NCBI GenBank assembly: GCA_032128875.1
Contig: JAVLKG010000002.1
Coordinates: forward strand, 416,001-480,000
Direction of reading: 5' to 3'
Source: Candidatus Melainabacteria bacterium 17Bon1m
GTDB lineage: Bacteria > Cyanobacteriota > Vampirovibrionia > Obscuribacterales > Obscuribacteraceae
DNA: 64,000 nt
The translations under genes and the position numbers were made by a program. The notes beneath the pieces are model-generated. The model saw nothing but the letters and a program-made list of their open reading frames with translations. It was not told the DNA's origin and searched no databases. Below, piece after piece: positions 1,267 through 17,677 of the stretch; within the stretch, counting starts at the first letter, position 1; each line of letters begins with the position of its first letter.

Positions 1267-2682
1267 ATGAAAATGACCAAGAGTGCGCGTTTGTATATAC
1301 ACGGGGCAAACCGCTTGTCTAACGCATCAATCGCCTTGCTCGGCTCATTACTTGTCTCTGGCGCATTCTCGGGCGTTTCGGCGCTGGCCGCGGACCCCAC
1401 GGATAAGCGATTTGCCACTCTTAAACCCGCTGACTCTGCAACAGCAGGTGCGGCACCGGCAGTTCCTGTCGTACCGGTCGTCAGCCCCGCTTTACAGCAA
1501 GCGTTGGCAGCATATAGCCAAAGCCCTGACCAGGCGGGCTTCGACCGCATGGTCAATGTTATGAAAGATGCCCTTTGCCTGCCTCCACTGCGCGATGCAG
1601 ATGCTTCGGTTGTGATTAAAAACCACCCTCAACTGGCTGATCTCGGCGCCCGTGCCATTGATGCCGGCGGAGCCAAAGTTTGGGCGTTCAATAAGTGCCC
1701 ATTTGCGCAGACCTGCATTATCTTGACCGGACACCCCGGTAGTCCTGCTGGCCCAGCAAAGCCAGCTATTCCAGCTGCCTATCGCGCACAGTTGCTTTCT
1801 ATGCCGCCAAACATCTCCATTTGGAGCGCAAAAATCGTCACAAAATCCAATCCAGCGCCGGTGAAAGTCGTCAAAGTCGGCAAGGGGCGCAACGCCAAAC
1901 TTGTGAAGCAAGCGGCTCCGGCAGCACCAGTAGCTGCTGTTCAAGGCGCCCCCGGTGCTCCCAAATACCTGGTAATCGCCGGCAATGACCGTTCTACCGG
2001 ATTAATCACTTTGTATGGACTGAGACCGACGGATGCCGGTTGGATAGCTGCTCCAGATCTTTTCACATCTGTGCCTCCCTTCCTGCTCTCGAGCGTGCAG
2101 GGGAAGGCTTCTTTCTCAGGCTCGGATATTGTTCTGGCAATCGCGTCCAATAAGCCGCCGGTTGAAAAAGCTGCAGCCGGCAAAGCGACTGGTCCTGCTT
2201 CAGGAAGCTACAAAATTGTTCTCAAATTTGTAAACAGCAAATATTTGCTCGAGGGTAAGGCGCCGGACGAGGGCCCAGCAATGGTGATTCACCAGTTTCT
2301 CCAAGCCGTTAAAGACGGCAAGCAAGACGTCGCTAAAGCCTGGTTGGCGGACGACCATCTGGCTTCCATTCCCAAATATTTGGGTCTCTACGGCAAGACC
2401 GATCAGGTCTACAAGCTTGTGGCTATGTCCAACCCTATGGGCGGCGGTTCGCGTTTCCGAGTAGTAACCTTTGGAAAAGACGATCTCATCCTTGACGTTG
2501 GGACCATTAGGAAGACTCTTTACGGCAAACCAGCTTCTTATGTAGCTATTAAAGCTCTATTTGTAGCCCCGCCGGATCCGTTCGCGAAAAAGCTTGTCGG
2601 GGTAACGCCGAATTTTGAGCGAATTGGCGACCCTGCACCTTCTTCAGATGCTGCGACCAATAAAATTGAGCAAAAACAATAA
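1267..2682 (+). CDS. Hypothetical exported protein
   Basis: Long ORF; AGGGAG RBS before ATG 1267; signal-peptide-like N-terminus (ALLGSLLVSGAFSGVSALA); Ala/Pro-rich linkers. Confidence 0.75.
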   Translation: MKMTKSARLYIHGANRLSNASIALLGSLLVSGAFSGVSALAADPTDKRFATLKPADSATAGAAPAVPVVPVVSPALQQALAAYSQSPDQAGFDRMVNVMKDALCLPPLRDADASVVIKNHPQLADLGARAIDAGGAKVWAFNKCPFAQTCIILTGHPGSPAGPAKPAIPAAYRAQLLSMPPNISIWSAKIVTKSNPAPVKVVKVGKGRNAKLVKQAAPAAPVAAVQGAPGAPKYLVIAGNDRSTGLITLYGLRPTDAGWIAAPDLFTSVPPFLLSSVQGKASFSGSDIVLAIASNKPPVEKAAAGKATGPASGSYKIVLKFVNSKYLLEGKAPDEGPAMVIHQFLQAVKDGKQDVAKAWLADDHLASIPKYLGLYGKTDQVYKLVAMSNPMGGGSRFRVVTFGKDDLILDVGTIRKTLYGKPASYVAIKALFVAPPDPFAKKLVGVTPNFERIGDPAPSSDAATNKIEQKQ

Positions 2683-2775
2683 AAGAAGAGTCTTACTTAG
2701 TAAGAGATCTTGAAAAAAGAGCTGTCATTATGGGCATATAAAGGCTGAACTGCCTGATTGCAATAGGTCATCTCC

Positions 2776-4695
2776 GTGTCGTCATCGTCCGACACTCCAT
2801 TTCAAACCCTTCCTTCTCGTGATGATCAACCATCTGACGAGAAGACTTACTTTGCGCCCTCACTTTCGTTTTTAACCTATTCCTATCGCGAGACTCTCTT
2901 TGCGGAATTCGAGAGGCTGGTGGAAGCAGCAAAGCAGTTCGACGGTTTGATCATCGACCTGATGCAAACTGGTTTTTCTGTGCCTCTTGATGAATTGGTC
3001 AAGTTCAGCCTCTATGCAAAACGGTTGTTGAAACCGCAGGGCGTTTTGCTCTTCGTCAAAGCTGACGGAGCGATTACTCTGACCAAAGATGACCCGGGCG
3101 GCGGTTTGACGTTTAACGTATACGACAGCCCCTTCGGCATTTTTGCGCGGCACCCCATGCTGGCTGATTATGTTTGCGCCACTGTGTCAGGTATCGACAG
3201 GCGACGTCTGCGCGGTGGCGGAAGCACTTTGGCGAACCACATTCTCTACACTTCGACACCTGTTCTCACCGACGCAGGCCGCAAAGCAAAGGAGGGATTC
3301 AATCTTCCGGCGCCGCAAAGCTGGGTTTTGCAAATGATCGACGATTACTCGTCTGTCGAGGCAATTACTCGTACTCTCGAAGAACGCCATCATTTGCCGG
3401 CTGACGAGACCCTGCGCATGCTTCAGGAATTGGAAGCGGAAGACATTATCTTTCCGGTTTTCTCGCGCATTCAGTTTCTCTCCAATTGCTACCACAACAG
3501 AAAACCTTTCAGGCTCGGGCGTTACATGGTTGCAGCCGGTATTCTCAGTGAGTCTCAATTGCAAGAACTTCTGGAAAGACAAGAAGAAGAGGGCTGGGGC
3601 AAAGGGCAGAAGACATTCCTCGGGCTGCTTGCTGTTCGGCTTGGTTTCTTAAATACGCGCGAATTGGAAGTTTTGCTCGACGACCAATACCTTTACGGTG
3701 GCTATCACAAGAAGGCCGACTCTGAAGGTCAATCCGGTCGCAACGTAGAGACCATGCGGGATTCGATGATTGGTTCACTGGGCGCGATCGAGGCGCACGG
3801 TTTGCTTCAATCTTTGTCGACTGCTCAAAAGACGGGCTTGCTCACTGTGGAGAACCGAGACAAGGCGCTCGTTGTTTCATTTACCAACGGCAAACCGATT
3901 GCCGCCAAAATGAACCGTTTGAAGGGCATAGAAGCCATTACAGAGTTTGTTACTAGTTGGACTGAGGGTATTTTCGTATTCCGCGACAAAGGCACCTCAC
4001 AGGAGCTCGAGGAGACCTGCGAGCTGAATCGATCTTTGGACAGGATGCTGCTCGATTCAATGCTTTACAAAGACCAAGTCAATCAAATTCTGGCTCAATT
4101 GCCGACAGGGCGAAACACCATTCTCGAGCGGGTTTGGAATTTCGAGACTCTCTGGAACAAGCTGTCCACCAAGCCTTTGAAATATCTCGATGAGAGTACT
4201 GTCACCGATCGCGACAAGCAGGCGATTCAGCAGCTTGCTAATTTGATCGATGGACTCTCGACTCTCGATGAGGTGATAAAGTCGTTCGACATGTGGCCCG
4301 GTTATGCCATCATCAAGTCGGTTCACCTGCTTATTGAGCAGCGTCTGGTGAATGTGCAGCAAGCCAGCCTTTTCCGTCCTCTTTCAGTCTTCCAGCGCAT
4401 TGTCAGTGAGTTGCAAAAAACTATCGGCAGAGACGACAACAAAGCGCTCTTGCAGGCCAGTCTGCATTATGTTCATGGTGATTCCCCTGCAGCATCCCGT
4501 TTCCACATCGATCACGAGGGACGGGTGAGCGTCAACCTTGCTCAGGTCAAAACCTCGGGTACGCCGGTGTCCGCAGTTTTACTCGAACTTCGTCGCTGGA
4601 TGGAGGCGTACCTTGCGTACTGCAGGCGCCAGATCGATCCGCATATTGTCGACAATGCGGTCGCCAAGATAGTCAACGGCCAGCCGCCGCAGTAA
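2776..4695 (+). CDS. DUF4388 (PATAN-like) domain protein with an MshEN-type c-di-GMP-binding motif
   Basis: GSLGAIEAHGLLQSLSTAQKTGLLTV...F.NGKPIAA...W.EG.F.F resembles DUF4388; RLGRYMVAAGILSESQLQELLERQ fits the MshEN consensus. Confidence 0.75.
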   Translation: MSSSSDTPFQTLPSRDDQPSDEKTYFAPSLSFLTYSYRETLFAEFERLVEAAKQFDGLIIDLMQTGFSVPLDELVKFSLYAKRLLKPQGVLLFVKADGAITLTKDDPGGGLTFNVYDSPFGIFARHPMLADYVCATVSGIDRRRLRGGGSTLANHILYTSTPVLTDAGRKAKEGFNLPAPQSWVLQMIDDYSSVEAITRTLEERHHLPADETLRMLQELEAEDIIFPVFSRIQFLSNCYHNRKPFRLGRYMVAAGILSESQLQELLERQEEEGWGKGQKTFLGLLAVRLGFLNTRELEVLLDDQYLYGGYHKKADSEGQSGRNVETMRDSMIGSLGAIEAHGLLQSLSTAQKTGLLTVENRDKALVVSFTNGKPIAAKMNRLKGIEAITEFVTSWTEGIFVFRDKGTSQELEETCELNRSLDRMLLDSMLYKDQVNQILAQLPTGRNTILERVWNFETLWNKLSTKPLKYLDESTVTDRDKQAIQQLANLIDGLSTLDEVIKSFDMWPGYAIIKSVHLLIEQRLVNVQQASLFRPLSVFQRIVSELQKTIGRDDNKALLQASLHYVHGDSPAASRFHIDHEGRVSVNLAQVKTSGTPVSAVLLELRRWMEAYLAYCRRQIDPHIVDNAVAKIVNGQPPQ

Positions 4696-4776
4696 AACGT
4701 TTCAAAGCCCCATCTAGGCTTTTAGAAACAGTACAATAACGCTCTTGTTTCAAGAAGAACCAAAGAGGAAGTCCTC

Positions 4777-6366
4777 GTGAAGTACAAATTGGAATCGGCT
4801 TCGCTTTCGCAATGCCAGAGCGATTTGGTTTGTGTATTTGTTTATTCAAATGAAAGTATTGCCGACGTTTTGAAAGATGTCGATCCTGCTTTTGGTCGCA
4901 AGCTTAAGCCTTTTGTGGACATGGTCTCCACGCATGCGACTGAGGATGGTTTCAAAGGAAAAGCCAATCAAGTGCTTGTACTTCCGACATTCGGAAATCT
5001 GACAGCCAGAAGAATTTGTTTTCTTGGAGTTGGAGAAGGCAAAGATTTCACCAATGCCAATGCCAGGAAAGCCGCGGCTACACTTGTAAGACGTTTGCCC
5101 GGTGAAAGCTTTCAAGGCGAGATATCGATTTATTTCCGCCATGGTGCAGCAGGCAAAACTACAGCTAAAAAAACTGCGGTAAAACGTCAAGCAAAAACTT
5201 CCGCCGCTTCGAAATCCGCAGAGCATGGGGATGATGCAGAGATCGCTCAAGCGATTGTCGAAGGTATTCACCTGGCGTCTTACTCTTTCAAAAAGTATAA
5301 GTCGAGCAAAAATGGCGACAATAAGAAAGAAAAAACAGCCCAGACCCTCGGCTTCAGTGGTCTGTCACTGTCTGCAAAAGCGCTCGCAGATGTTTGTGCG
5401 AAGGGAGAATCGATCGCCGAATCTACCAACTTCGCACGCCGCCTAATTGCCGAGCCACCGTGCTTTATGACACCCAGTCGGCTGGCTGACGAAGCTCGTG
5501 CCGTCGGAAAGGAATTCGGTCTCACTGTCAAAGTTTTTGATGCCAAAGAAATCGAGAAGATGTCTATGGGCTCTTTTCTTGGTGTCGCCCGTGGTGCCAA
5601 AGAACCGCCTAAATTCATTGTCATTTCTTATGATGTTCCGAAAGCAAAACGAAAAGTTGCTATTGTCGGCAAAGGCATAACCTTTGATTCAGGCGGGCTT
5701 TCGCTCAAGCCGGCCCAGAGCATGGAACATATGAAATATGACATGTCTGGTGCTGCCGCCGTCATCGCGACAATGCGTGTAGTCGGTAAATTCAAACCGA
5801 ATTTTTCCGTAATGGCAGTGGTCGCCGCTACAGAAAACATGCCTGGAGACAATGCTTTGCACCCGGGCGATGTGATCAAGGCAATGAACGGCAAAACCAT
5901 TGAAGTAAACAACACTGACGCTGAAGGTCGGTTGATTCTCGCCGATGCCCTTACTTACGCTGTTAAGCAAGGTGCCGACGAGTTGATTGATATTGCTACT
6001 TTGACAGGCGCAGTAGTTACGGCCTTGGGTCGTGTCGCAGCCGGAATCATGGGTTCTGATCAGAATCTGGTCAACCAGCTCATTGAAAGTGGTGCGCGCG
6101 GTGGAGAAAAACTCTGGCAATTGCCGCTTTATGATGAATATCAGGAAAGCTTGAAGAGTGATATCGCTGATTTGAAAAACGCAGGTGCTCGCGGCGAGGC
6201 TGGAACGGCCAGCGCCGCTATGTTCCTCAAAGAGTTCACTGGAGGCAAGTCATGGGCGCATTTAGATATTGCCGGTCCAGGCTGGCTGGATCGAGATAGA
6301 GAAGAATGCAACAAAGGCGGCACCGGATTTGGTGTACGCACTCTTTGCCGATATTTGATCGGATAG
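4777..6366 (+). CDS. pepA: Leucyl aminopeptidase (M17)
   Basis: VGKGITFDSGG, MKYDMSGAA, NTDAEGRL, WAHLDIAG motifs. Confidence 0.97.
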   Translation: MKYKLESASLSQCQSDLVCVFVYSNESIADVLKDVDPAFGRKLKPFVDMVSTHATEDGFKGKANQVLVLPTFGNLTARRICFLGVGEGKDFTNANARKAAATLVRRLPGESFQGEISIYFRHGAAGKTTAKKTAVKRQAKTSAASKSAEHGDDAEIAQAIVEGIHLASYSFKKYKSSKNGDNKKEKTAQTLGFSGLSLSAKALADVCAKGESIAESTNFARRLIAEPPCFMTPSRLADEARAVGKEFGLTVKVFDAKEIEKMSMGSFLGVARGAKEPPKFIVISYDVPKAKRKVAIVGKGITFDSGGLSLKPAQSMEHMKYDMSGAAAVIATMRVVGKFKPNFSVMAVVAATENMPGDNALHPGDVIKAMNGKTIEVNNTDAEGRLILADALTYAVKQGADELIDIATLTGAVVTALGRVAAGIMGSDQNLVNQLIESGARGGEKLWQLPLYDEYQESLKSDIADLKNAGARGEAGTASAAMFLKEFTGGKSWAHLDIAGPGWLDRDREECNKGGTGFGVRTLCRYLIG

Positions 6367-6375
6367 CTGATTTAG

Positions 6376-9300
6376 CTAGGTAGAAACAACCTGCGTGATG
6401 CTGCGCATTAGCGGTATGAGCGCATCGGTGTCACGTCCGTCGCTAAGGGTCACCAGAAGTCCTCCGCCAAAATCTGCGATTACCAGGAAGCCGCGCGGTG
6501 TGCGAGCGACGACCTGATGGACGCGATTGTGGCCGATCTTCTTAATTGCAGTTTCTGTATTCATGTACACGGCAAGCGCCCAGATGCCGATGGAATCGGC
6601 TTCTATGTCCTGTGGCATAGTGTTGGCGATGAGCAAACCGTCATGCCCGATGATGATCGATCCGACAACATCAGGCGTGCCACCGATGTGGTGAAGTAGT
6701 CCTTGAATTTCGGAAGCGGCTTCCAAAGTAAGGATCTTCATCTTGGTGTCGGAAAGATCCGAAGCAGTCAATTTGCCAATCTTTTCCAGGTCTTTTTGGT
6801 CAAGCAAGAATTTGCCTATCGATGCAATTCTTCCGCTGCCGGTATCGCCGCCCTGATCTGGCTTGGCATCCAACCTTCCCAAACCTTCGATTTTGGGAGG
6901 AGGAACCGCCGCACCCATTGGATCTTGAACGGCAACGTCGCTCAGTGCTTGAACCGCTGCGGCTACATTCACTCTTTGCTGACCTGCGTTTACTTGCGTA
7001 TCTTGATCTTGAACTCCGAGATTGTCGGAGAAGATCTGATTCATCATGTTGTCGTCGACGCTAAAGAGACCAGCCTGAGCCTGAGGTGCTTGCGGCGGTG
7101 GTGCTCCAAACGGTGCGGGAGCCTGAGCCGGGGCGCCAAACGGTGCCGGTGCCGGAGCGCCAAATGGCGCTGGAGCCGGAGCGCCAAATGGCGCTGGAGC
7201 TTGCTGAGCTTGAGGCATTTGCGGCGGCTGCGGTGCTTGAGCTGGTGCTCCGAATGGAGCGCCAAAAGGTGCAGGAGCGGCAGCTTGCTGAGGAACACCG
7301 AAAGGCTGAGGCGGCGCAGCTTGACCAAATTGATCAAGTGCCTGAGGCGGCGCTCCGAAAGGAGCTGGAGCTGCTTGTTGTGGTGGCACTCCGAACGGCT
7401 GTTGTGCAAATGGCGCGGACGGTGCCTGTTGTTGCATGGGTTGTTGCATTTGCTGCTGCTGCTGCATCTGTTGCTGCATGTCTTGCTGCATTTGAGGTTG
7501 CATCTGCTGTTGCATTTGAGCTTGTGCAGGCATTTGCTGTTCGCCGGTTCCACCAACAGGCTTAGCCATTTCTTGTACTCCAAGGTTTTTGGAGAACAAG
7601 TCGTCCATGGCAGTATCGTCTAAATTGAAAAGTCCGTTCGATTTGTTTTCCGGTGCCGCCGGTGCTGCGGCAAAAGGCGCCGGTGCTGCGGCGACAGGAG
7701 CTTGACCGTTCGGCGGTATAGCCGCCGGGAAGCCGCCTGATGCACTGGGCTGTCCCCAGCCTGTAGCCGGAGGACCACCGGATGCGGTGGCAACGTTTTT
7801 CGACATTACAGGAACGATTTTCGGTTGACCCGCTCCACCAGTTGCCGGTTGCGGCATGGCAAAGGGATTGGCAGGAGCCGGTGCAGCAGGTGCACCAAAT
7901 GGCGCTGGCGGCGCCGATGCTGCTGGAGCAAATGGTTGTGGTGCAGCTTCCGGCTGTCCGAACGGAGCAGGCGGTGGTGCGCCAAAAGGTTGGACCGGTT
8001 CTGGAGTTTGCGCCGCAAATGGCATCGGAGCCGGTGCCGGCGTAGCAAACGGCTGAGGTGCTTCAGGCGCGCCAAATGGAGCCGGCGGCGGTGCGCCGAA
8101 TGGAGCAGGTGGTGCACCAAATGGAGCAGGTGCGCTTGGTGTCGCAAACGGCATAGGAGCTTCTTGAGCCGGTGCACCAAACGGTGCCGGTGGTGGTGCA
8201 GGCGCTGCAAAAGGTTGCGGCTCCGGTGCTTGCTGAGCAAATGCTGGTGCTTGCGGCTCCGGCATTGCAGGCGCAAAGGGCTGAGGATTAGAGTCTTGTC
8301 CAGGCACCGGAGGCGGGTTGAAGGGCTGACCCCATGGGTTGGCTACCGGCTCGGGAGGTGCAATCGGCAGCGACTTCATGATCGCCGGTTGTGGCGGACC
8401 TTCTTGCTTCGGCACTGCTGCCTGCGGTGAGCTTTCATTGATGCCAAGGTGCTCTGAGAATATTTTTTCGATTTCGTTATCGTCGACATTGAATAATGCG
8501 CCGCCGATTCCTGCTGCCGGTGCTTGCGGTGGTGCAGGCATTGCAGGCTGCGGAACTGGTTGTCCAGGAACAAATGCTGGTGGATTGATATTCAATCGCG
8601 AAGGCGAGCCACCTGACTGTGGCATTGCCGGTTCTGGCGGAACTCCAAATGGTTGAGCGAAAGGCTGAGGAGGAGCTGCATCAGCTTGAGGCTGTCTGTG
8701 CAATTGATCTTGTGCTTCCACGACCGGCAAATCCCAACTTGATGCTGTGATGCCTTGGTCAGCTGGAGAACCAAACGGATTTGGTGGTGCCGGCGGTGCC
8801 ATTGGTGCTGGAGCCGGTGCTGCTTGCGGAGCAGGAGGCGGCGAGCCCCAAGGTGTCGGAGCTGCTGGCTGCGGTGAAAGCGGCTCACCGACAGGTTGCG
8901 CTGTAGTTGGGGTCAGTTGCTGGGTGCGTTCTTGAATAGGAACATCCCAGCGCGGAGGGGGCGGCGAAAGTTCAGGAGCTTGCTGTTGCGAGCGATCTTG
9001 AATTGGGGTATCCCAACGATTGTCGCCTGTTGCTTTTGCTGCCGGAGCTGCCATCGGAGAGGGCATTGGCGGTGCTGCTGGTGCTGCCGCCATCGCTTCT
9101 TGCTTCATGCGCTCCTGAATTGGCATATCCCAGCGAGACTCTTCAGAGTTTTGTCCTGGAGCCGCTTGTCCTTCAGCAAGAACATTGGACAGCCTATCCA
9201 TAATTGAATCTTTTGGTATGCCTGTGCCGGCCACACCAGCTGGTGCGCTGGGCATAGCAGGGGCTTGCGGAGCCGCGCCCGCGCCAAATCCACCCGGTGC

Positions 9301-11664
9301 CGAAGCGCCCGGCAGAGGAGGAGCTGCACCAGGAACTGGTACTCCCCACGGATTGTTTGCTGGAGCTGGCGCAGGAGCTGCTTGCTCCTGTGCTCGATTT
9401 TGAATTGGTTGATCCCAGCGATTTGCATCGGCCGCCGGTTGCGCACCTCTGTCCTGAATGGGTGTATCCCAGCGGTTTTGTGCTCCACCGGGCGGCGGAG
9501 GTGGTGGCATCTGCGGTGCGGCTGCTCCCGGTGCCGGTGTTGCGCCCCAACCTTTGGGAGTTGCAGGAGCATTGGAAACAAGTGCGTCAGAACCCGGTGT
9601 GAATGCTCTCCACGTGCCGGTTTCAATTTGTTCTGCGTCTACAGACCAAGCATTGCCTGGCTTGGGAGCTGCCGCCGGAGCCTGAGCTGGTGCGGGTGCT
9701 GGTTGAGCCGGTTCTGGTTCGGGCGTTCTTGCTTGTTCTGCGCCCCAAGCGTTTCCGCCACCAGGCTGACCCCAGCCGCCTCCCGGCTGTCCGCCGGCAG
9801 GTGCACCCCAACTGTCGTTCGGTTTTTGAGCTATCTGACCCCAGCTGCTGCCGGAACTTCCTTGATTTCCCCAGGCGCCGGCCGCTGCTGGTGCAGCTTC
9901 GGCAGTAGGCGCTGCCGCTGCAGGCGCTGAAACTGCGGCATTGGCACCGGAATTTGGATCGTTTCCGGGCGGGTTGCCCCAGGCTTGTGGTTGCGCAGGT
10001 GGTGTTGCCCAACTATCCGGAACTGCGTTTTGACTTCCGCTTGGCGCGCCTTGTCCCCAGCCATTTGCGTTTCCGCCCCATGCTGAGTTTGCACTGCCGG
10101 CCTGTCCGCCTGCTTCAACTGCTGGTGCACCCCATGGATTACTGTCCGGTGCTTTTGCGGCAGGTGCAGCCTGAGACGGTGCGGGCGCAGCGGTTTCAGG
10201 AGTAGGAGGTGAACTCCATCCGCCCGGATTGCCACCACTCCAACTGTCTGCACCACTTGGGGGCGCACCCCATGCGCCGGGAGCAGCCGGTGCGGGTGCG
10301 GGCGCTGCGGCTTGTGGAGACTGTAACGGCTTATTCCAGGGCTGGTCGGGAGAGTCCATATTGGGCATTCCACCCGGCATTCCGAAATTCGGCGCCTGTG
10401 TCGGCGGTGCAAATTGATTGGAAGCAGCGGCCTCGTCGGGATCATCCCAGGCGCCACCTTGTGGCGGTGGTCCCCAATCGCCTTCCTGACCATTCGCCCC
10501 TTTAGGAGCCTCATTGCCCCAGTTCGGATCGCCCCATGCGCCCGCCCCTGTAACGCCTTGACCAGGCGCTTTCAGTCCGGGCATGGGTGGCTGTCCACCT
10601 GCAGGACCACCGGGGACTCCGCCACCAGGCGGTCCACCCCAATTAGAAGCTTCTTGTGTTGGGCTTGTTGGCTTGCCCCAATTACCGGCAAGGTTTGCTC
10701 CACCTTCGCCCATTGCATTTGGTGCCGGCATTGGTGGTGGCATTTGCGGCATTCCAGGCATAGGCATGGATTGCGACGAAGACATTGGCGCGCCCATTCC
10801 AGGAGGCGTCAAACTGGGATTTGATTGACCGGGCAAACCGGTCGGACCATTAAGCTGCTGGCGATTTGGCAAGCCTGGCGGCTTCATCCAATTAGGCTCT
10901 TCTTCCTGCTGGCGACCACTGCCTTCCGGACCGAGTTCGTCCTCGACGCTTATCGGTTCGTGCTCGCCGGTTGCTCTTTGCGATTCGGCGATCTTCCTTC
11001 TTATAGATTCTGCAAGTGTCAGCGGCTGATCATCTGTAAGTTGATTCGGTCCGGCCATGCCGAACTTTTCACCGAGCGATCTTGTAGTCGACTGAGCTTC
11101 ACGGCTGTCCATAATAGGCTCGGACATGCCTTTGGCGATTGCTTTGAGTCGAGTTGCCGTACCGGAGTGATCTTCAGGCGGCCGGCCTTTTGCTTGCGGC
11201 GGCGCCATTTGAGGAGGAATTGAATTGGAGTCTTCAAACTGAGTGATCGGCTGATTCATCGGCTGCGAGCGATGCGGATATCGGCTGCCGCCGGCAGGCT
11301 CCATGTCCATATCCATTCCTGGAGGCATGGTGTCTTTCTTGCCTCGACCACCCTTCTGCTCTTTTTCAGCTTTAGGCGCTTTTTCTTTGCCCTTGAACAT
11401 ATTGCCGAACATCGCGAAGGGTGAGGCTTTCTGTTCCGGCAAATCTTCCAGAATTGCGCGGGCGAGCATCTCTGGCTGAGGCGGCGTCAAGTCATCAGGT
11501 AACTGAACATCATCGGCAGCAAGGAGAACTTGTTGAATTTGGTGATGAAATTTAGCGCACGATTCGCACGTTTCCAAGTGAGCAGACAGCATACGCTCGT
11601 CCTGCGCCTGCAGATCCATGTCGAATCGTTGTTGAATTAAGTGTCGGAATCGACTGCAATTCAT
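6376..11664 (-). CDS. Giant protein: N-terminal zinc-finger anti-sigma (zf-HC2/ZAS) domain, long Pro/Gly/Ala/Gln-rich disordered region, C-terminal Roadblock/LC7 domain
   Basis: N-terminal MNC...HLETCESC (HxxxCxxC); C-terminal VVGSIIIGHDGLLIA...IGHNRVHQVVARTPRGFLVIADFGGGLLVTLS; lies directly downstream of an ECF sigma. Confidence 0.85.
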   Translation of the reverse strand: MNCSRFRHLIQQRFDMDLQAQDERMLSAHLETCESCAKFHHQIQQVLLAADDVQLPDDLTPPQPEMLARAILEDLPEQKASPFAMFGNMFKGKEKAPKAEKEQKGGRGKKDTMPPGMDMDMEPAGGSRYPHRSQPMNQPITQFEDSNSIPPQMAPPQAKGRPPEDHSGTATRLKAIAKGMSEPIMDSREAQSTTRSLGEKFGMAGPNQLTDDQPLTLAESIRRKIAESQRATGEHEPISVEDELGPEGSGRQQEEEPNWMKPPGLPNRQQLNGPTGLPGQSNPSLTPPGMGAPMSSSQSMPMPGMPQMPPPMPAPNAMGEGGANLAGNWGKPTSPTQEASNWGGPPGGGVPGGPAGGQPPMPGLKAPGQGVTGAGAWGDPNWGNEAPKGANGQEGDWGPPPQGGAWDDPDEAAASNQFAPPTQAPNFGMPGGMPNMDSPDQPWNKPLQSPQAAAPAPAPAAPGAWGAPPSGADSWSGGNPGGWSSPPTPETAAPAPSQAAPAAKAPDSNPWGAPAVEAGGQAGSANSAWGGNANGWGQGAPSGSQNAVPDSWATPPAQPQAWGNPPGNDPNSGANAAVSAPAAAAPTAEAAPAAAGAWGNQGSSGSSWGQIAQKPNDSWGAPAGGQPGGGWGQPGGGNAWGAEQARTPEPEPAQPAPAPAQAPAAAPKPGNAWSVDAEQIETGTWRAFTPGSDALVSNAPATPKGWGATPAPGAAAPQMPPPPPPGGAQNRWDTPIQDRGAQPAADANRWDQPIQNRAQEQAAPAPAPANNPWGVPVPGAAPPLPGASAPGGFGAGAAPQAPAMPSAPAGVAGTGIPKDSIMDRLSNVLAEGQAAPGQNSEESRWDMPIQERMKQEAMAAAPAAPPMPSPMAAPAAKATGDNRWDTPIQDRSQQQAPELSPPPPRWDVPIQERTQQLTPTTAQPVGEPLSPQPAAPTPWGSPPPAPQAAPAPAPMAPPAPPNPFGSPADQGITASSWDLPVVEAQDQLHRQPQADAAPPQPFAQPFGVPPEPAMPQSGGSPSRLNINPPAFVPGQPVPQPAMPAPPQAPAAGIGGALFNVDDNEIEKIFSEHLGINESSPQAAVPKQEGPPQPAIMKSLPIAPPEPVANPWGQPFNPPPVPGQDSNPQPFAPAMPEPQAPAFAQQAPEPQPFAAPAPPPAPFGAPAQEAPMPFATPSAPAPFGAPPAPFGAPPPAPFGAPEAPQPFATPAPAPMPFAAQTPEPVQPFGAPPPAPFGQPEAAPQPFAPAASAPPAPFGAPAAPAPANPFAMPQPATGGAGQPKIVPVMSKNVATASGGPPATGWGQPSASGGFPAAIPPNGQAPVAAAPAPFAAAPAAPENKSNGLFNLDDTAMDDLFSKNLGVQEMAKPVGGTGEQQMPAQAQMQQQMQPQMQQDMQQQMQQQQQMQQPMQQQAPSAPFAQQPFGVPPQQAAPAPFGAPPQALDQFGQAAPPQPFGVPQQAAAPAPFGAPFGAPAQAPQPPQMPQAQQAPAPFGAPAPAPFGAPAPAPFGAPAQAPAPFGAPPPQAPQAQAGLFSVDDNMMNQIFSDNLGVQDQDTQVNAGQQRVNVAAAVQALSDVAVQDPMGAAVPPPKIEGLGRLDAKPDQGGDTGSGRIASIGKFLLDQKDLEKIGKLTASDLSDTKMKILTLEAASEIQGLLHHIGGTPDVVGSIIIGHDGLLIANTMPQDIEADSIGIWALAVYMNTETAIKKIGHNRVHQVVARTPRGFLVIADFGGGLLVTLSDGRDTDALIPLMRSITQVVST
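7121..7200 (-). repeat. Coding ~24-bp tandem repeat (APAPFGAP units)
   Basis: Repeated gcgccaaa(t/c)gg...gccgga units on the + strand. Confidence 0.7.
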
Positions 11665-11691
11665 TATCAGTTACCGCGCTCTCTAAAAGAA

Positions 11692-12264
11692 CTATCCCCT
11701 GCCAAGGCATTTAACTATTTGCACTCGTGCTCTATAGAGCCACGCCTGAATGGTTTCTTTCGGCTGGTGCAAAACCGAACCCATTTGTTCATACGTAAGA
11801 TCGAGTTGGTGGCGCAGCATGAAAACCTTTTGCTGCTCCTCGGACAATGTGCTCAGGCAACGTCGTACCCTTTGCGTTCCGAGAATGACCGTCGTTTCCC
11901 AGTCCATATTGCCAGATCCATCGGAAGCCGGGTCTGTACGAGCACCAGGTGGCAACGGACCAGTGTATTGCGAGTGATACTCGGCGCAAGCGTCAACGAT
12001 AAAATTTGACACCCAGTACCAGAGAGGCATATTCACCTTCTTTGGGTCCGTGTGTTTCAGCGATGCAAAAGCATTGCGGAAAGCCATTATGGTTAGTTGA
12101 GTCGCTGTTTCTGGATTGCCTGTTGCCATGTAAGCGATGGCGTAAAAACGTTCTTGGTGATTCCAGACGAAATCGTTGCGCTGCTCTTTGTTGCCTTTCT
12201 TCAATTCGAAGAGGACTCCGGCAGCCGCTTGGTTGAAATTATTCCGAGAGGGAAGGATAGGCAT
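11692..12264 (-). CDS. ECF-type sigma-70 factor (divergent)
   Basis: 190 aa; sigma2-like (RFYAIAYMATGN...AFRNAF...WVSNFIVDAC) and sigma4-like (LSTLSEEQQKVFMLRHQLDLTYEQMG..L....TIQAWLYRAR) regions; adjacent to a ZAS protein. Confidence 0.85.
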   Translation of the reverse strand: MPILPSRNNFNQAAAGVLFELKKGNKEQRNDFVWNHQERFYAIAYMATGNPETATQLTIMAFRNAFASLKHTDPKKVNMPLWYWVSNFIVDACAEYHSQYTGPLPPGARTDPASDGSGNMDWETTVILGTQRVRRCLSTLSEEQQKVFMLRHQLDLTYEQMGSVLHQPKETIQAWLYRARVQIVKCLGRG

Positions 12265-12623
12265 CTTTTTCTATGACAAGACCGCTGAAAATGCGAATAC
12301 TGAAACAATAGCCAACAAAATGTCTGTAGCGGGACGTCAGGAGGGTTTTTCTTGATCGCAACACGCGGCCGCGAATACTCCCAACCAGCAACTCTATGAC
12401 CCAAAAAAAGGGCGAGCTGCCGACCGCCAAGTAGCCACTTTTCCAGTTTACCTGATTCGGGCGGGACTCAGGAAGGATTTTGTGGGATAACTGGTGGGCT
12501 CAAAAACGCTTACGGACTGAAAAAACCTCCGTTGACAGGCGATAACGACTCATACCGCTAACATATGATGTACCACGTTACGCGCGTTAGTATCTTCATT
12601 CTGATAATTAGGAAGCTTGCTCG

Positions 12624-13499
12624 ATGCCATTACCGGAAACGCATACTATTGAAATCAAGGTTCGCAACGCCGCTGCCTATACTTTGAACAATGTTGTTGC
12701 GACAGCAAGAAGCTGTTCGCCACAGGATTTGAAGATTGCTGCAGCGAATGTGGACTTGGTTGACGAGTCCGGTAAAGTGCCGCCAGAAGTGACCGATTTC
12801 GTAAATTATGTTATGACAGATCTCTTCACACTTTTGCACCGAAGTGGGCTTTACAACAGGCAAAGAGCCTTCTGGGAATCAATTGCTCGCGCCGTCAAGA
12901 TTACTGTCCATCCGGTCACACAAGGCTTTTTCAAGAAAGAAGCCTTGCCAATGTACGATGTGCATTTTGAGGATGCCTCAGGTGGCACCACGCTCTTAGC
13001 ATTTGTCGTTCTGAATCACGCTCAGTGGAACGTGCCTAAGTACGCTACTGCGTATTTCAAAGAATTGATGCACAGGGCTCAGCAAGCAGACAAAAAGAGA
13101 CCGGTCATGAAATCCATTATGGTCGTCGCGCCCAAACCGTTTTCAGAAGAGCTTTATAAATACGTAGATAAAATTTTGGGCGGACCAAATCTCGATCCGG
13201 TCTCGAGATTCGAATCGGTTTTGCAATCGCCATTAACTGTCCACCTGAACTTGTTTGAGTATGGTGTGTCGGCAGGCGATGCTCAAACAAGAGATAACTC
13301 GCAGATGGAGCCTGCAGGGCAAGATTCTGATGAAGAGGAAAACTCTGTCAAATCGCCTTCATATGATCCTGCTGAAATTGACGACCCCAATGTAATTGGC
13401 GATGAAAGCCTTCTTCATCCGGAAGATATGAAAGTTCGGCCAGGCCGATTCATCTTCAAGATGATTCTGCCGGATGTTGAGAAGGCGCGTAAGAAATAA
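12624..13499 (+). CDS. Hypothetical protein
   Basis: 291-aa ORF with ATG and AGGAAG RBS; acidic C-terminal tail. Confidence 0.7.
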   Translation: MPLPETHTIEIKVRNAAAYTLNNVVATARSCSPQDLKIAAANVDLVDESGKVPPEVTDFVNYVMTDLFTLLHRSGLYNRQRAFWESIARAVKITVHPVTQGFFKKEALPMYDVHFEDASGGTTLLAFVVLNHAQWNVPKYATAYFKELMHRAQQADKKRPVMKSIMVVAPKPFSEELYKYVDKILGGPNLDPVSRFESVLQSPLTVHLNLFEYGVSAGDAQTRDNSQMEPAGQDSDEEENSVKSPSYDPAEIDDPNVIGDESLLHPEDMKVRPGRFIFKMILPDVEKARKK

Positions 13500-13521
13500 A
13501 TCCTCTCTTTTTTCAAAGAGT

Positions 13522-15090
13522 TTATAGAGGAATATTTCCGTGTTTTCTCTTCGGTCTTTCAATGCGCTTGTTTTTCTGCACTTCCAAGGCGGCATGCAGA
13601 TATCGTCTCGTTTCTGACGGCATGATCACATCGTCTACATAGCCAAGCTCTGCAGCTACATAAGGATTGGCAAATCGTTCTCTGTACTCTGCAACGAGCT
13701 CTTTGTGTTTGGCAGGTGCATCGTTTTTGAGCTTGTCCAATTCTTTTCTGTACAAAAGATTGACCGCTCCATCAGCCCCCATAACTGCAATTTCCGCTGT
13801 GGGCCAGGCGAAATTGAAATCACCGCCTACGTTTTTCGAGCCCATTACGTCGAATGCACCGCCATATGCTTTGCGAGTGATTACGGTGAGTTTGGGAACA
13901 GTTGCTTCGCAGTACGCGTAAAGCAGCTTGGCTCCATGCCTGATAATGCCATGATGCTCTTGAGTGCGACCAGGCAAATAACCCGGCACATCGACAAAAG
14001 TAATTAATGGAATGTTGAATGCATCGAGGAAACGCACGAATCGAGCGCCTTTGATTGATGCATTGATGTCCAGCGTTCCTGCTAACTTCTTTGGCTGGTT
14101 GGCGACAATTCCTACTGTTTCACCATGCAGTCGGGCGAAGCCTGTGATTAAGTTAGTAGCGTAAAGTGGCGCTATTTCAAAGAAATCGCCATTATCGAAG
14201 ATGTTGGTGATTACGTCGTGCATGTCATATGGCTTGGCAGGATCATGTGGCACAACGCTGTCGAGAGAAATCATGTTTGCTGGTTCGGCATCCTGACCGG
14301 GTTCTACAAAGGGCGGCGGTTCAAGATTGTTGAGCGGCAAATAGGAGAGCAGTTTTCTCACCATCCAGAAAGATTCTTCTTCGTCCTCTGCCAGCAGTTG
14401 TGCAACACCGCTTTTCTCGTTGTGCACGCGTGCTCCACCCAGTTCGTCAAAGGTGACATCTTCACCAGTGACGGTGCGCACGATTTCAGGACCGGTGATA
14501 AACATATAGCTGGCTTTGTCTACCATGATAGTGAAGTCCGTGACGGCTGGGCTGTAAACCGCGCCGCCTGCGCAGGGTCCGTAAATCACAGAAATCTGTG
14601 GAATCACTCCTGAAGAATTGACGTTTCGATAAAAGATATCTGCGTAGCCCGCCAGTGAAGCTACACCCTCTTGAATGCGCGCTCCGCCGCTTTCGTTCAG
14701 ACCGATGACTGGGCAACCTGCTTGCTTGGCCAGGTCCATCACTTTACAGACTTTGCGGGCGAAGACTTCACCGAGCGCGCCACCAAGGAAGGTGGCATCA
14801 TGCGCGAAAATGTAGACTGGGCGCCCATCGATTTTTCCTTGCCCGGTGACAACGCCATCGCCCACGACCTTCTTTTCATCGAGCCCAAAGTGGTCGCAGT
14901 GGTGGACTGCATAGCGATCTAGTTCGATGAAGGAGCTTTCGTCAAGCAAGCTGGCGATGCGCTCTCTTGCATGCATGGTGCCTTTGTCGTGACGTTTTTT
15001 CAAAGTCGCTTCGCTGACGGCAACTGCTTCTGCGCGTTTTTCAATCAGGCGCTCGTTGGGCGTTTTTGCTGTTTTGCTCTTCGTTTCCAT
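13522..15090 (-). CDS. pccB: Acyl-CoA (propionyl/methylmalonyl-CoA) carboxylase, carboxyltransferase beta subunit
   Basis: GDGVVTG, ESGGARIQEG, GPCAGGAVYSPA, DVPGYLPG, RKAYGGA, KRKHGNIPL; start moved to ATG 15090 to avoid overlap with mgtE. Confidence 0.9.
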   Translation of the reverse strand: METKSKTAKTPNERLIEKRAEAVAVSEATLKKRHDKGTMHARERIASLLDESSFIELDRYAVHHCDHFGLDEKKVVGDGVVTGQGKIDGRPVYIFAHDATFLGGALGEVFARKVCKVMDLAKQAGCPVIGLNESGGARIQEGVASLAGYADIFYRNVNSSGVIPQISVIYGPCAGGAVYSPAVTDFTIMVDKASYMFITGPEIVRTVTGEDVTFDELGGARVHNEKSGVAQLLAEDEEESFWMVRKLLSYLPLNNLEPPPFVEPGQDAEPANMISLDSVVPHDPAKPYDMHDVITNIFDNGDFFEIAPLYATNLITGFARLHGETVGIVANQPKKLAGTLDINASIKGARFVRFLDAFNIPLITFVDVPGYLPGRTQEHHGIIRHGAKLLYAYCEATVPKLTVITRKAYGGAFDVMGSKNVGGDFNFAWPTAEIAVMGADGAVNLLYRKELDKLKNDAPAKHKELVAEYRERFANPYVAAELGYVDDVIMPSETRRYLHAALEVQKNKRIERPKRKHGNIPL

Positions 15091-16708: not shown

Positions 16709-17677
16709 TCAATCTTCAAGATAGCCGGCCAACTTAGAAGACCAGGCAGGTTGCCGCAGTTTTCTAAATGCTTTGTGCTCAATCTGACGAACGCGCTCGC
16801 GGGTGATATTGAAAAGGCGGCCGACTTCTTCCAAAGTTCTTTGTCTGCCGTCTTCCAGACCGTAACGCAGATGCATGATGTCCCGCTCGCGCGGTGTCAA
16901 TTGGCTGAGCATGCGGTTCAAGTCCTGGCGCATCAATTCTTCTTCTGTTGTCATGTCCGGACGCGAAGTGATGTTGTCTTCGATCAAGTCGCCCAGATAG
17001 GTCTCTTCATCTCTATTGAGCGGCATTTCCATGGAGACTGGTTCTCTATCCGCCTGGATGATTTCCGTGATCTTATTTACGGACAATTCCATGGCACTGG
17101 ACAATTCCGACTCTGTGGGCTTGCGGCCCAGTTCTTGAGAAAGTCGGGCAGAGGTTTTCTTCAATTTGTTGATTGATTCGACCATGTGCACCGGCACTCT
17201 GATGGTTCTTGATTTATCAGCCAGACCGCGGCTGATTGCTTGCCTGATCCACCAGGTGGCATAAGTGCTGAATTTGAAACCTTTGGTGTGATCGAATTTC
17301 TCGGCAGCTCTGATGAGCCCGAGATTACCTTCCTGAATTAAGTCTTGGAACGGCAGACCACGATTTACATATTTTTTTGCGATGGAAATTACAAGACGCA
17401 AGTTGGCTTGAATGAGCTTCTTCTTGGCGTCCAAATCGCCGGCGGCAATGCGTCTGGCAAGCTCGATTTCCTCATCGGGCTTGATCATTTTTACGCGACC
17501 GATTTCACGAAGATAGAGTCTTACAGAGTCTTCAGTAAATCCATCAGGACCTGTCGGCTCCTTCTCTTCCGGCTCCTCTTCCTGTGCAGCAACGGCTGCC
17601 GGCCCTTGCTGAGCATCATCCTCTTCAAAGGCTTCTTGCCAATCGTCAGCTACTTCATCGCGAACTTTAGACGCCAA
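16709..17677 (-). CDS. rpoD: RpoD/SigA-family sigma-70 factor
   Basis: [67 protein letters not shown] start with AGGAG RBS; primary vs group-2 status not resolved. Confidence 0.9.

Follow-up and report, generated by a model that had tools for sequence, protein, structure and literature searches.

Introduction

Pairs of extracytoplasmic function (ECF) sigma factors and anti-sigma factors are among the main signalling devices of bacteria, and the well-studied pairs receive their signal by way of a sensor in the membrane or periplasm, a redox-active zinc site or a partner switch. We describe a locus in a 64,000-nucleotide stretch of DNA (the window) from Candidatus Melainabacteria bacterium 17Bon1m (GenBank assembly GCA_032128875.1, contig JAVLKG010000002.1, positions 416,001 to 480,000 of the forward strand), in which an ECF sigma gene is directly followed by a gene for a 1762-residue protein, hereafter the giant protein, with a predicted zinc-binding anti-sigma (ZAS) domain at its N-terminus and a predicted Roadblock/LC7 domain at its C-terminus. 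This architecture is a real, conserved and undescribed variant of the ECF/anti-sigma pair, the signalling logic of which we infer below.

RsiW of Bacillus subtilis is a single-pass membrane protein freed by site-1 and site-2 proteolysis, RsrA of Streptomyces consists of about 100 residues with no further domain, and in the RpoE/ChrR pair of Rhodobacter a cytoplasmic ZAS head is fused to a second soluble, signal-receiving domain, a cupin on a short linker. With SigW/RsiW the present locus shares the succession of an ECF sigma and a zinc-type class I anti-sigma domain, and both proteins have their best solved relatives in the same crystal entry (5wuq), RsiW aligning over 70 residues at 24% identity. 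Unlike RsiW, the giant protein has no transmembrane helix after the anti-sigma domain, the mark of anti-sigma factors of the RsiW/RseA type (highest Kyte-Doolittle mean 1.32), just an 11-residue hydrophobic patch and then a further 1,680 residues. SigR/RsrA and other small soluble ZAS proteins have in common with it their solubility, an HxxxCxxC motif with an upstream cysteine and a gene position directly after the ECF sigma, but the RsrA equivalog model stays far under its cut-off on the giant protein (15.6 versus 62.5 bits). Where ChrR has its cupin, the second domain of the giant protein is a Roadblock, 1,500 predicted-disordered residues away.

Elsewhere, the Roadblock fold is known to serve small GTPases and disordered partners as a platform. 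MglB, the Roadblock GTPase-activating protein of MglA, has this fold in common with the giant protein, and MglA homologues are present in the genome; the giant gene, however, is unlinked to mglA and its Roadblock domain stands at the end of a very long protein with an anti-sigma head. Fold matches (1veu, 3cpt, 5y3a, 3l7h and 3kye) connect the tail with Ragulator (LAMTOR2/3, MP1/p14) and dynein LC7, and a sequence match to cvnB5 (3leq, E 3.2e-5) connects it with Streptomyces CvnB. The Ragulator, dynein LC7 and CvnB systems are the source of the view that Roadblock dimers serve as docking platforms; to our knowledge and within the literature searched, no Roadblock of these types forms a fusion with a sigma or anti-sigma factor or is known to control one.

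The initial annotation of the window, made from the letters alone, did not recognise this architecture from described ECF groups, and full-text searches agree, with no match for an anti-sigma factor combined with Roadblock/LC7. No Roadblock-bearing anti-sigma factor was found in a full-text search, 'roadblock' standing beside 'anti-sigma' only in its everyday sense among the matches listed. The word 'roadblock' has zero occurrences in the main texts of the ECF re-classification (PMC7826278) and of the paper on class I anti-sigma factors (PMC7406223), as have 'melainabacteria' and 'LC7' in the main text of PMC7826278; 'Roadblock', 'Robl', 'PF03259' and 'Melainabacteria' are absent from one supplement file of each paper, to which the supplement search was confined. 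What is unusual in the giant protein is its linker and its Roadblock domain, not its solubility: in the available part of PMC7406223, soluble proteins make up about 35% of class I anti-sigma factors, and 72% of the soluble ones carry a zinc motif.

Locus organization and the ECF sigma factor

The pair occupies the following positions of the window:

11692..12264, minus strand: ECF sigma gene (P0002), 190 aa (open reading frame list and translation)
11665..11691, minus strand: spacer of 27 nt from the sigma stop codon to the ATG of the giant gene (open reading frame coordinates)
6376..11664, minus strand: giant anti-sigma/Roadblock gene (P0001), 1762 aa, a single open frame (open reading frame list and translation)

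The initial annotation had described an ECF sigma gene followed after 27 nt by a gene for a 1762-aa protein. The coordinates of the open reading frames (ORFs) confirm this order, as does the match of P0002 to the NCBIfam model TIGR02937 (sigma70-ECF) at 49.1 bits over residues 28-187, against a cut-off of 42.9; no strand had been given, and both genes lie on the minus strand. No terminator-like site was seen in the 27-nt spacer at 11665-11691.

The sigma is also matched by Pfam Sigma70_r4_2 (E 7.8e-12, 45.1 bits, cut-off 25.7). Pfam Sigma70_r2 gave no match in P0002, so the assignment of region 2 rests on the TIGR02937 alignment. The closest solved relative is B. subtilis SigW (5wuq_A, E 6.1e-5), and among the best 25 of 55 matches the NCBIfam subfamily and equivalog sigma models are all far under their cut-offs (SigW, for example, at 29.2 versus 209). 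By these profile matches P0002 is predicted to be an ECF (group IV) sigma-70 factor with sigma-2 and sigma-4 regions.

Anti-sigma head of the giant protein

The N-terminus of the giant protein holds one domain:

11425..11664, minus strand: class I anti-sigma domain of zinc (ZAS) type, residues 1-80 (profile, fold and ligands)

An N-terminal HxxxCxxC motif had been noticed in the initial annotation and taken for a ZAS-type head, a view upheld here by the position of the motif (residues 29-36) and by a profile match to RsiW. With an extra cysteine at residue 3, the candidate zinc ligands are C3, H29, C33 and C36; in 13 orthologues C36 is invariant and C3, H29 and C33 are each conserved in at least 90%. 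A head profile built from the same 13 orthologues (alignment A2) matches RsiW (5wuq_C) with E 6e-7, profile positions 7-80 aligning with residues 8-76 of the chain. The same crystal entry also holds SigW, the best solved relative of the sigma. On the first 90 residues by themselves, Pfam zf-HC2 scores 22.2 bits, exactly its cut-off, and it matches 12 of 13 orthologous N-termini (best E 2.9e-7). Identity of the head among genera is 45-62%.

The predicted structure of the head (pLDDT 81.7 overall, above 90 over the first 50 residues) has helices at residues 4-15, 20-32, 34-52 and 64-74, and this modelled layout is the three-plus-one arrangement of class I anti-sigma domains. An exhaustive structural aligner run against 48,161 chains placed MucA first (Z 7.9, root-mean-square deviation 1.6 over 52), RsiW second (Z 7.8, 70 residues aligned, 24% identity) and RslA third (Z 5.6); anti-sigma domains make up 6 of the top 20, PupR, RseA and the SigK partner being the others. 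The weight of this search lies in the enrichment of anti-sigma domains together with the sequence match, not in the Z values. On sequence and model combined, residues 1-80 are predicted to be a class I anti-sigma domain of the zinc (ZAS) type. A candidate set of short stand-alone heads was rejected: the three matches all lie on contigs of 0.6-3.3 kb and are fragments, the word-indexed search being no proof of absence.

Roadblock tail

At the other end of the protein, two nested features are recognised:

6379..6894, minus strand: conserved C-terminal module, residues 1591-1762 (alignment A1, Pfam and fold)
6382-6726, minus strand: Roadblock/LC7 core, residues about 1647-1761 (Pfam and predicted structure)

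The C-terminal Roadblock/LC7-like domain of the initial annotation is borne out by Pfam Robl_LC7 (PF03259), whose score over residues 1657-1738, 27.9 bits, exceeds the cut-off of 23. The conserved region is 172 residues long with 47-74% identity among orthologues (alignment A1), and includes a strongly conserved lead-in of ~55 residues (GSGRIASIGKFLLDQKDLEKIGK) N-terminal to the core. In the structural model the core (pLDDT 73-92) is a sandwich of helix, two strands, helix, three strands and helix, the lead-in being of low confidence.

A Foldseek search with the tail returned 109 PDB matches at E <= 0.001, and all listed chains belong to the Roadblock family. They include Roadblock3 (9jue, E 4e-8, TM-score 0.87), Asgard archaeal Roadblocks (TM-score up to 0.88), a Streptomyces Roadblock, MP1/p14 and Ragulator, dynein LC7 and the MglB chains 6izw, 6hjm, 6h5b, 1j3w and 3t12 (TM-score 0.71-0.82). 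By sequence, the tail is nearest, among proteins of known structure, to archaeal Roadblocks (2.8e-11), dynein light chains and CvnB5 (3leq, 3.2e-5), with no MglB at E <= 0.01. Pfam and model together indicate that the C-terminal ~115 residues adopt the Roadblock/LC7 fold.

Conservation and distribution of the pair

The sigma has orthologues (44-100% identity) in 23 of the 24 other genomes of the family and in all three of the sister family; the family exception (G020) is a 77% complete genome with just a 27%-identical ECF. None was found in 13 genomes from six other families of the class. Twenty loci were fetched, 19 of which have a head-bearing ORF directly after the sigma. In fourteen of the fetched orthologues the protein is encoded by a single ORF (957-1762 aa) whose two ends are conserved, two loci are apparently split by frameshift or error (602+552 aa; 164+884 aa), and the remainder are cut at contig ends.

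A scan with the head alignment over one genome per species (185,579 species) yielded 60 loci. The sigma lies directly upstream on the same strand in 60/60, at a distance of 5-154 nt (approximate; 56 of the 60 loci have a recognised start), and HxxxCxxC is present in 53 of those 56. The giant gene is not an assembly artefact, because the sigma gene directly precedes it in all 60 loci and 14 orthologues are encoded in one uninterrupted frame; a fusion of two genes in the assembly, raised in the initial annotation as what would undo its reading, is thereby refuted. The survey of architecture and synteny that it had called for finds the pair kept in the family, in the sister family and across the species-level loci. 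The ends of the giant protein are conserved and its middle changes fast. Across an order of non-photosynthetic relatives of the cyanobacteria, the two genes are conserved as an obligately linked pair.

Nearly all records of the species-level scan are titled Obscuribacterales, Obscuribacteraceae, Melainabacteria or 'Cyanobacteria bacterium', and the public names of giant orthologues are 'hypothetical protein' or 'roadblock/LC7 domain-containing protein'. A few records bear the titles Drouetiella, Planktothrix, Oculatellaceae, Bryobacterales, Actinobacteria and Proteobacteria (L077, L080, L082, L083, L084, L091 and L105). Because their gene order matches the Obscuribacterales records, these titles are read as labelling errors, the records probably being mislabelled metagenome bins. 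A membrane-anchored paralogue type in photosynthetic cyanobacteria was considered and dropped, the 'Drouetiella' and 'Oculatellaceae' labels being unreliable and the loci carrying a sigma/giant pair of Obscuribacterales type.

Post-head patch and linker

Between the two conserved ends, the following features were located:

11320..11427, minus strand: hydrophobic patch of 11 residues, then a Lys/Arg/Gly-rich stretch, residues about 80-115 (hydrophobicity in 13 orthologues)
6895..11394, minus strand: low-charge Pro/Ala/Gly/Gln linker with motif arrays, residues 91-1590 (composition and motif counts)
9595..9654, minus strand: conserved island NAWSVDAEQIETGTWRAFTP, residues 671-690 (orthologue contexts)
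8926..9474, minus strand: RWDxPIQxR, five copies, residues 731-913 (motif scan)
8440..8496, minus strand: acidic amphipathic LFxxDDxxIxxIFSxxLG, copy 1, residues 1057-1075 (motif scan)
7576-7632 and 7012-7068, minus strand: LFxxDDxxIxxIFSxxLG, copies 2 and 3 (motif scan)

That the giant protein has no evident transmembrane helix, as the initial annotation stated, agrees with its highest 19-residue Kyte-Doolittle mean of 1.32, and the two most hydrophobic 19-residue windows both lie within the Roadblock fold. A hydrophobic patch follows the head in 13/13 orthologues, presumably at the position where the membrane helix of RsiW begins; its hydrophobicity is at or above the 97th percentile of its own protein in 11 of the 13 and at the 85th and 89th in the remaining two, and a basic Lys/Arg/Gly-rich run comes after it in most. 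Together, the patch and the basic run form a possible peripheral membrane-binding segment.

The ~1,500 aa of low-complexity sequence noted earlier are equally real: residues 91-1600 consist of P 21%, A 18%, G 11% and Q 10%, and residues 96-1590 have 11% charged residues and zero Cys. The linker contains 20 WG motifs (mostly small-W-G-x-P), 18 PFG, 5 RWDxPIQxR and 3 LFxxDDxxIxxIFSxxLG, arranged in two halves with the W motifs in residues 300-1000 and the F motifs in 1000-1590. Its 34 W and 45 F, about 80 aromatic residues, are never adjacent, and their spacing (coefficient of variation 0.78 versus 0.96 +/- 0.11 in shuffled sequences) is more even than in 97% of shuffles.

W motifs are present in the linker of 8/8 genus-level orthologues, with 8 to 45 W each and WGxP as the commonest context in most. 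A context 'xTGxW(R/Q/K)' related to the island at residues 671-690 (…ETGTWRAF…) recurs in 6 of these 8, four times as ETGTW and twice as a variant, with none for G017 or G014 in listings of at most 40 contexts; R/HWD(V/L/T)PI is also found in the G018, G022, G017 and G014 orthologues. Single lineages have amplified W repeats of their own, namely PVSAWGAPV at least seven times (G026), Q(N/D)DGWGAPP seven times (G024), DQGAWG at least seven times (G014) and (N/S/A)DAWGAPA five times (G022). This separate amplification of WGAP 9-mers per lineage argues for selection on motif number, not position: the kind of motif is conserved and its position is not. The acidic LF...IF motif is found in 46 of 134 long members of the Roadblock-ended family and in 0/134 shuffled sequences, and it is common to the sigma-linked and the membrane-anchored paralogue types. 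Repeats at the DNA level, seen only as short imperfect arrays of 12-30 nt, were rejected as the source of the repeated protein motifs.

Roadblock-ended family, GTPases and neighbouring genes

With the C-terminal module as query, a profile search of 1.84 billion representative sequences returned 1,746 proteins at E <= 0.001, of which 131 reach E <= 1e-30. Members of this family are mostly long and carry the module at their extreme C-terminus. An anti-sigma-like head is recognised by our own hidden Markov model in 40 of the 150 listed members, some of the others being start-site miscalls or fragments. The giant protein itself is absent from the ESM Atlas, where a homologue used as query retrieved only its own cluster of 80 'hypothetical' Robl_LC7 proteins.

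In the genome the module occurs in four ORFs, the giant gene and three paralogues, which are listed here with the MglA-like genes:

C9:167657-170035, minus strand: membrane-type paralogue, 792 aa, locus L050 7661-10036 (module search)
C6:265240-267345, minus strand: head-bearing paralogue, ~655 aa, locus L049 6241-8346 (module search)
Contig C3, at 631.8 kb: stand-alone Roadblock, 122 aa (module search)
C3:548718-550785: two tandem MglA-like GTPase genes, ~0.9 kb apart (L025 and L027), no Roadblock gene beside them

The C9 paralogue has an N-terminal hydrophobic domain, read from its sequence as about four membrane helices, then a long PEPK repeat, the acidic LF...IF motif twice and the Roadblock module; its relatives of 826-1376 aa are unnamed or called 'predicted regulator of Ras-like GTPase activity'. 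The C6 paralogue consists of an anti-sigma-like head without zinc ligands, a Ser/Pro/Thr-rich linker and the Roadblock module, with no adjacent sigma gene and with VWA-like, Sel1-repeat and hybrid histidine kinase genes downstream. Orthologues of the 122-aa Roadblock (58-100% identity) are present in both families of the order, and it is 22% identical to the Roadblock domain of the giant protein. Long and small Roadblock genes are often side by side elsewhere in the phylum; in G018 a 132-aa Roadblock gene lies directly downstream of the giant gene. New here, beside what was first noticed in the window, are the linker motif array, the hydrophobic-plus-polybasic patch after the head and the Roadblock module in the three paralogues.

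The search of the genome for MglA-like GTPases that the initial annotation had suggested succeeded, finding the two tandem genes on another contig. In most of the family (9 of 11 aligned rows) one copy keeps 94-98% identity, and the other is apparently restricted to the genus and its nearest relative, with 86-100% identity within the genus. MglA is present in 23/24 genomes of the family (f1), 3/3 of the sister family (f2) and 2/2 of a third family (f3), and in 0/11 genomes from the rest of the class. The window ORFs that were scanned include no GTPase gene. The available part of PMC4316618 takes mglA within four genes as the sign of coupling to MglB, and here the GTPase genes are on C3 and the giant gene on C2. 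The well-conserved 122-aa stand-alone Roadblock is a likelier MglB than the giant protein.

Downstream of its 3' end, the giant gene is convergent with a conserved block of genes for an unknown protein of 481 aa and a DUF4388/PATAN protein, usually together with pepA:

2776..4695, plus strand: DUF4388/PATAN protein, 639 aa, MshEN-like motif, convergent with the giant gene (DUF4388 match 1.7e-14)

Orthologues of the PATAN protein (53-99% identity) lie near the 3' end of the giant gene in 13 of the 20 fetched loci and abut it in two. This synteny is weak evidence of a link, because housekeeping genes are equally syntenic. MglB homologues near PATAN genes are described in the available part of PMC4316618. 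As a side observation, residues 246-269 of the PATAN neighbour (RLGRYMVAAGILSESQLQELLERQ) fit the relaxed 24-residue cyclic di-GMP-binding MshEN motif given in the available part of PMC5013675; this motif is found in 7/7 orthologues, followed 11 residues later in six of the seven by a second half-motif without the first Arg, and the protein may be a cyclic di-GMP receptor.

On the other side of the pair, a gene for a 291-aa protein without Pfam match lies at 12624-13499 on the plus strand, divergent from the sigma gene, an arrangement retained (27-95% identity) in most fetched loci of both families. A full-length sigma-70-type gene with regions 1.2, 2, 3 and 4 is found at 16709-17677 on the minus strand, 4.4 kb upstream of the ECF gene, and its orthologue is immediately upstream of the ECF sigma in two other genera (L037 and L033).

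Upstream DNA elements and RNA-labelled runs

Two features stand out in the DNA upstream of the sigma gene:

12555..12576, minus strand: partly palindromic element GTGGTACATCATATGTTAGCGG, 312 nt upstream of the sigma ATG (conservation across loci)
12411-12428, minus strand: terminator-like hairpin with T-run, between the conserved element and the sigma start (~310-nt region)

Of the 60 species-level loci, 51 carry the sequence GTGGTACA ahead of the sigma gene, at -31 to -370 nt, within a strongly conserved and partly palindromic element of the form GTGGTACAT..ATGTTA. A second conserved block (ATCAGGTAAACTGG) lies ~120 nt downstream of the element at 12555-12576. The 9-mer is rarer than expected, with 14 genome copies versus about 58, and the extended element is not repeated elsewhere in the genomes searched, occurring only at the sigma locus. 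The element could serve as a promoter or bind a dedicated regulator as its operator. Beyond the sigma locus none of the 14 copies of the 9-mer is convincingly promoter-like, and a 17-mer allowed up to 2 mismatches gave 11 matches in 29 genomes, of which just the three at sigma loci are meaningful, versus 11 for the reversed control. Rfam returned no match at E <= 1 on 12150-12750, and RNAalifold on 11 leaders from 11 genera gave -0.06 kcal/mol with zero compensatory pairs. The conserved leader blocks are read as DNA elements because there is neither an Rfam match nor a consensus RNA structure.

Four RNA-labelled runs (X1-X4) cover window positions 2500-14000 with contigs of 7.8 to 112 kb that hold the genes of both strands without differences; in two of them contigs break at about 9386-9388, within the giant gene.

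Proposed mechanism and alternative explanations

The explanation we favour, and hold to be somewhat better than an even bet, is a dedicated ECF sigma/anti-sigma pair in which the membrane sensor is replaced by a long disordered tether and a Roadblock docking domain. That the head binds and silences its co-encoded sigma is very probable. Residues 1-80, with zinc bound, would clamp sigma-2 and sigma-4 in the manner of RsiW on SigW and so bar the sigma from RNA polymerase, while the patch after the head and the C-terminal Roadblock would fix the complex at a set site. This site would most likely be a membrane-proximal platform of Roadblock dimers, or of heterodimers with the membrane-anchored paralogue and/or the small Roadblock. 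The linker, with its about 20 WGxP, 18 PFG, 5 RWDxPIQxR and 3 LFxxDD...IFSxxLG motifs, may act as a multivalent surface that recruits partners or self-associates. Since a flexible chain of 1,500 residues cannot relay a conformational change, tail and head would be coupled through location, multivalent assembly or stability. The sigma would then be controlled by the location and persistence of its anti-sigma factor, and released by oxidation of the zinc site, by displacement or by degradation of the exposed linker, not by intramembrane proteolysis triggered at the envelope. This explanation is supported by the sigma upstream in all 60 loci, the RsiW profile match (E 6e-7), zf-HC2 in 12/13 N-termini, the conserved zinc ligands and the anti-sigma folds ranked 1-3. 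The Roadblock matches of the tail, the lack of a transmembrane helix, the patch in 13/13 orthologues, the motif arrays and the use of one Roadblock module in four ORFs of the genome also speak for it.

Several observations weigh against it. The initial annotation had proposed a search for zf-HC2 and Robl_LC7 at the two termini; the latter is above its cut-off, but zf-HC2 reaches it only in the isolated head and scores 16.2 bits, under the 22.2 cut-off, on the whole giant protein. The fold Z values of 7.8-7.9 are middling for a helical bundle, and Foldseek on the head model gave nothing at E <= 0.001, its top match being MucA at E 5. One lineage (G014 and three loci of the species-level scan) is without the His and two Cys of the zinc site, so zinc or redox sensing is not universal. 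Disorder of the linker is judged from composition only, and we infer membrane association of the patch purely from its sequence. No regulon of the sigma can be defined from the 9-mer and 17-mer searches, and the RNA-labelled runs, from their contigs and gene content, contain genomic DNA of this or a near-identical organism, may even derive from the source sample, and hence give no evidence of transcription, of start sites or of co-transcription.

Of the other explanations, control by MglA, a redox switch and a condensate overlap with one another. A redox sensor with a passive tail, in which oxidation of an RsrA-like zinc-thiolate frees the sigma and the linker and Roadblock serve localisation or an unrelated function, seems rather unlikely, although all four ZAS ligand positions are present, HxxxCxxC is kept in 53/56 loci and the available part of PMC7406223 ties the zinc motif, carried by 72% of the soluble class I proteins, to redox sensing in the cytoplasm. 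The best match of the head is RsiW, not RsrA, whose equivalog model scores 15.6 versus 62.5 bits, and the lineage without three of the four ligands keeps the whole architecture. RsiW itself is a zinc-binding anti-sigma factor that is not known to be redox-regulated. A passive tail is also hard to reconcile with the C-terminal module (47-74%) being more conserved among genera than the head (45-62%). We regard as unlikely, too, a GTPase switch, with the tail acting like MglB on MglA, or being bound by it, so that the nucleotide state decides whether the sigma is held or freed. In its favour are the two tandem MglA-like genes that have no adjoining Roadblock, one of them 94-98% identical in 9/11 rows, and the fold matches of the tail to MglB chains (TM-score 0.71-0.82). 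MglA, the small Roadblock and the sigma/giant pair moreover all occur in both families of the order and in none of 11 genomes from five other families, a co-distribution that weighs little because a single clade is one observation; the conserved PATAN neighbour recalls the MglB homologues near PATAN genes in the available part of PMC4316618. The GTPase genes, however, lie on a different contig from the giant gene and outside the four-gene distance of that source, family f3 has MglA but yielded no orthologue of the sigma, and the 122-aa Roadblock, with 58-100% identity across the order and just 22% to the Roadblock domain of the giant protein, makes the more obvious MglB. The tail is, besides, nearer by sequence to archaeal, dynein and CvnB Roadblocks, MglB being absent at E <= 0.01.

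Another unlikely alternative is a condensate or hub, in which aromatic stickers in a low-charge spacer self-associate, the Roadblock dimer may bind the LF...IF helices of its own chain and the sigma is stored in a membraneless body. Dynein LC7 and Ragulator Roadblocks bind helices of disordered partners, and a dynein intermediate-chain/Roadblock structure (3l7h) is among the fold matches. The about 80 non-adjacent, evenly spaced aromatics at 11% charge, the W and F motifs in separate halves, the independent amplification of W motifs per lineage and the acidic motif shared with paralogues bearing the same Roadblock all agree with it; the reasoning is from composition only, though, and the spacing statistic is modest (3% of shuffles). 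That the head is no longer an anti-sigma domain, the giant protein being a Roadblock scaffold that merely shares an operon with the sigma gene, is very improbable. The C6 paralogue carries a related head without zinc ligands and without a sigma neighbour, so such heads can exist apart from a sigma, but at the present locus the sigma is upstream in 60/60 cases and the head is conserved over the full length of an anti-sigma domain, including the fourth helix.

Returning to the pair with a tether and docking domain, a further-reaching form of it would be control by place rather than by shape, with the sigma stored by the zinc head on a Roadblock-nucleated, membrane-proximal hub together with the paralogue, the small Roadblock and possibly MglA, and with a multivalent or condensate-like linker. 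We consider this version decidedly unlikely; if it were true, transcription by the sigma would be a read-out of how a polarity or motility platform is assembled. In full-text searches of the literature, no such route from a Ras-like GTPase/Roadblock system to RNA polymerase was found.

Conclusions

The sensor end of the giant protein would be a Roadblock domain, parted from the sigma-binding head by a chain too long and flexible for an allosteric signal. If the favoured explanation is true, the pair would be a natural case of transcription control by tethering or sequestration, and it would link Roadblock systems, perhaps with Ras-like GTPases, to RNA polymerase. Tests must be heterologous because the hosts are uncultured. 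In the available part of PMC4316618, 328 orphan MglB homologues are counted, none of them characterised, and the giant protein would provide a first functional handle on such proteins. The finding also bears on the family of long Roadblock-ended proteins in non-photosynthetic relatives of the cyanobacteria.

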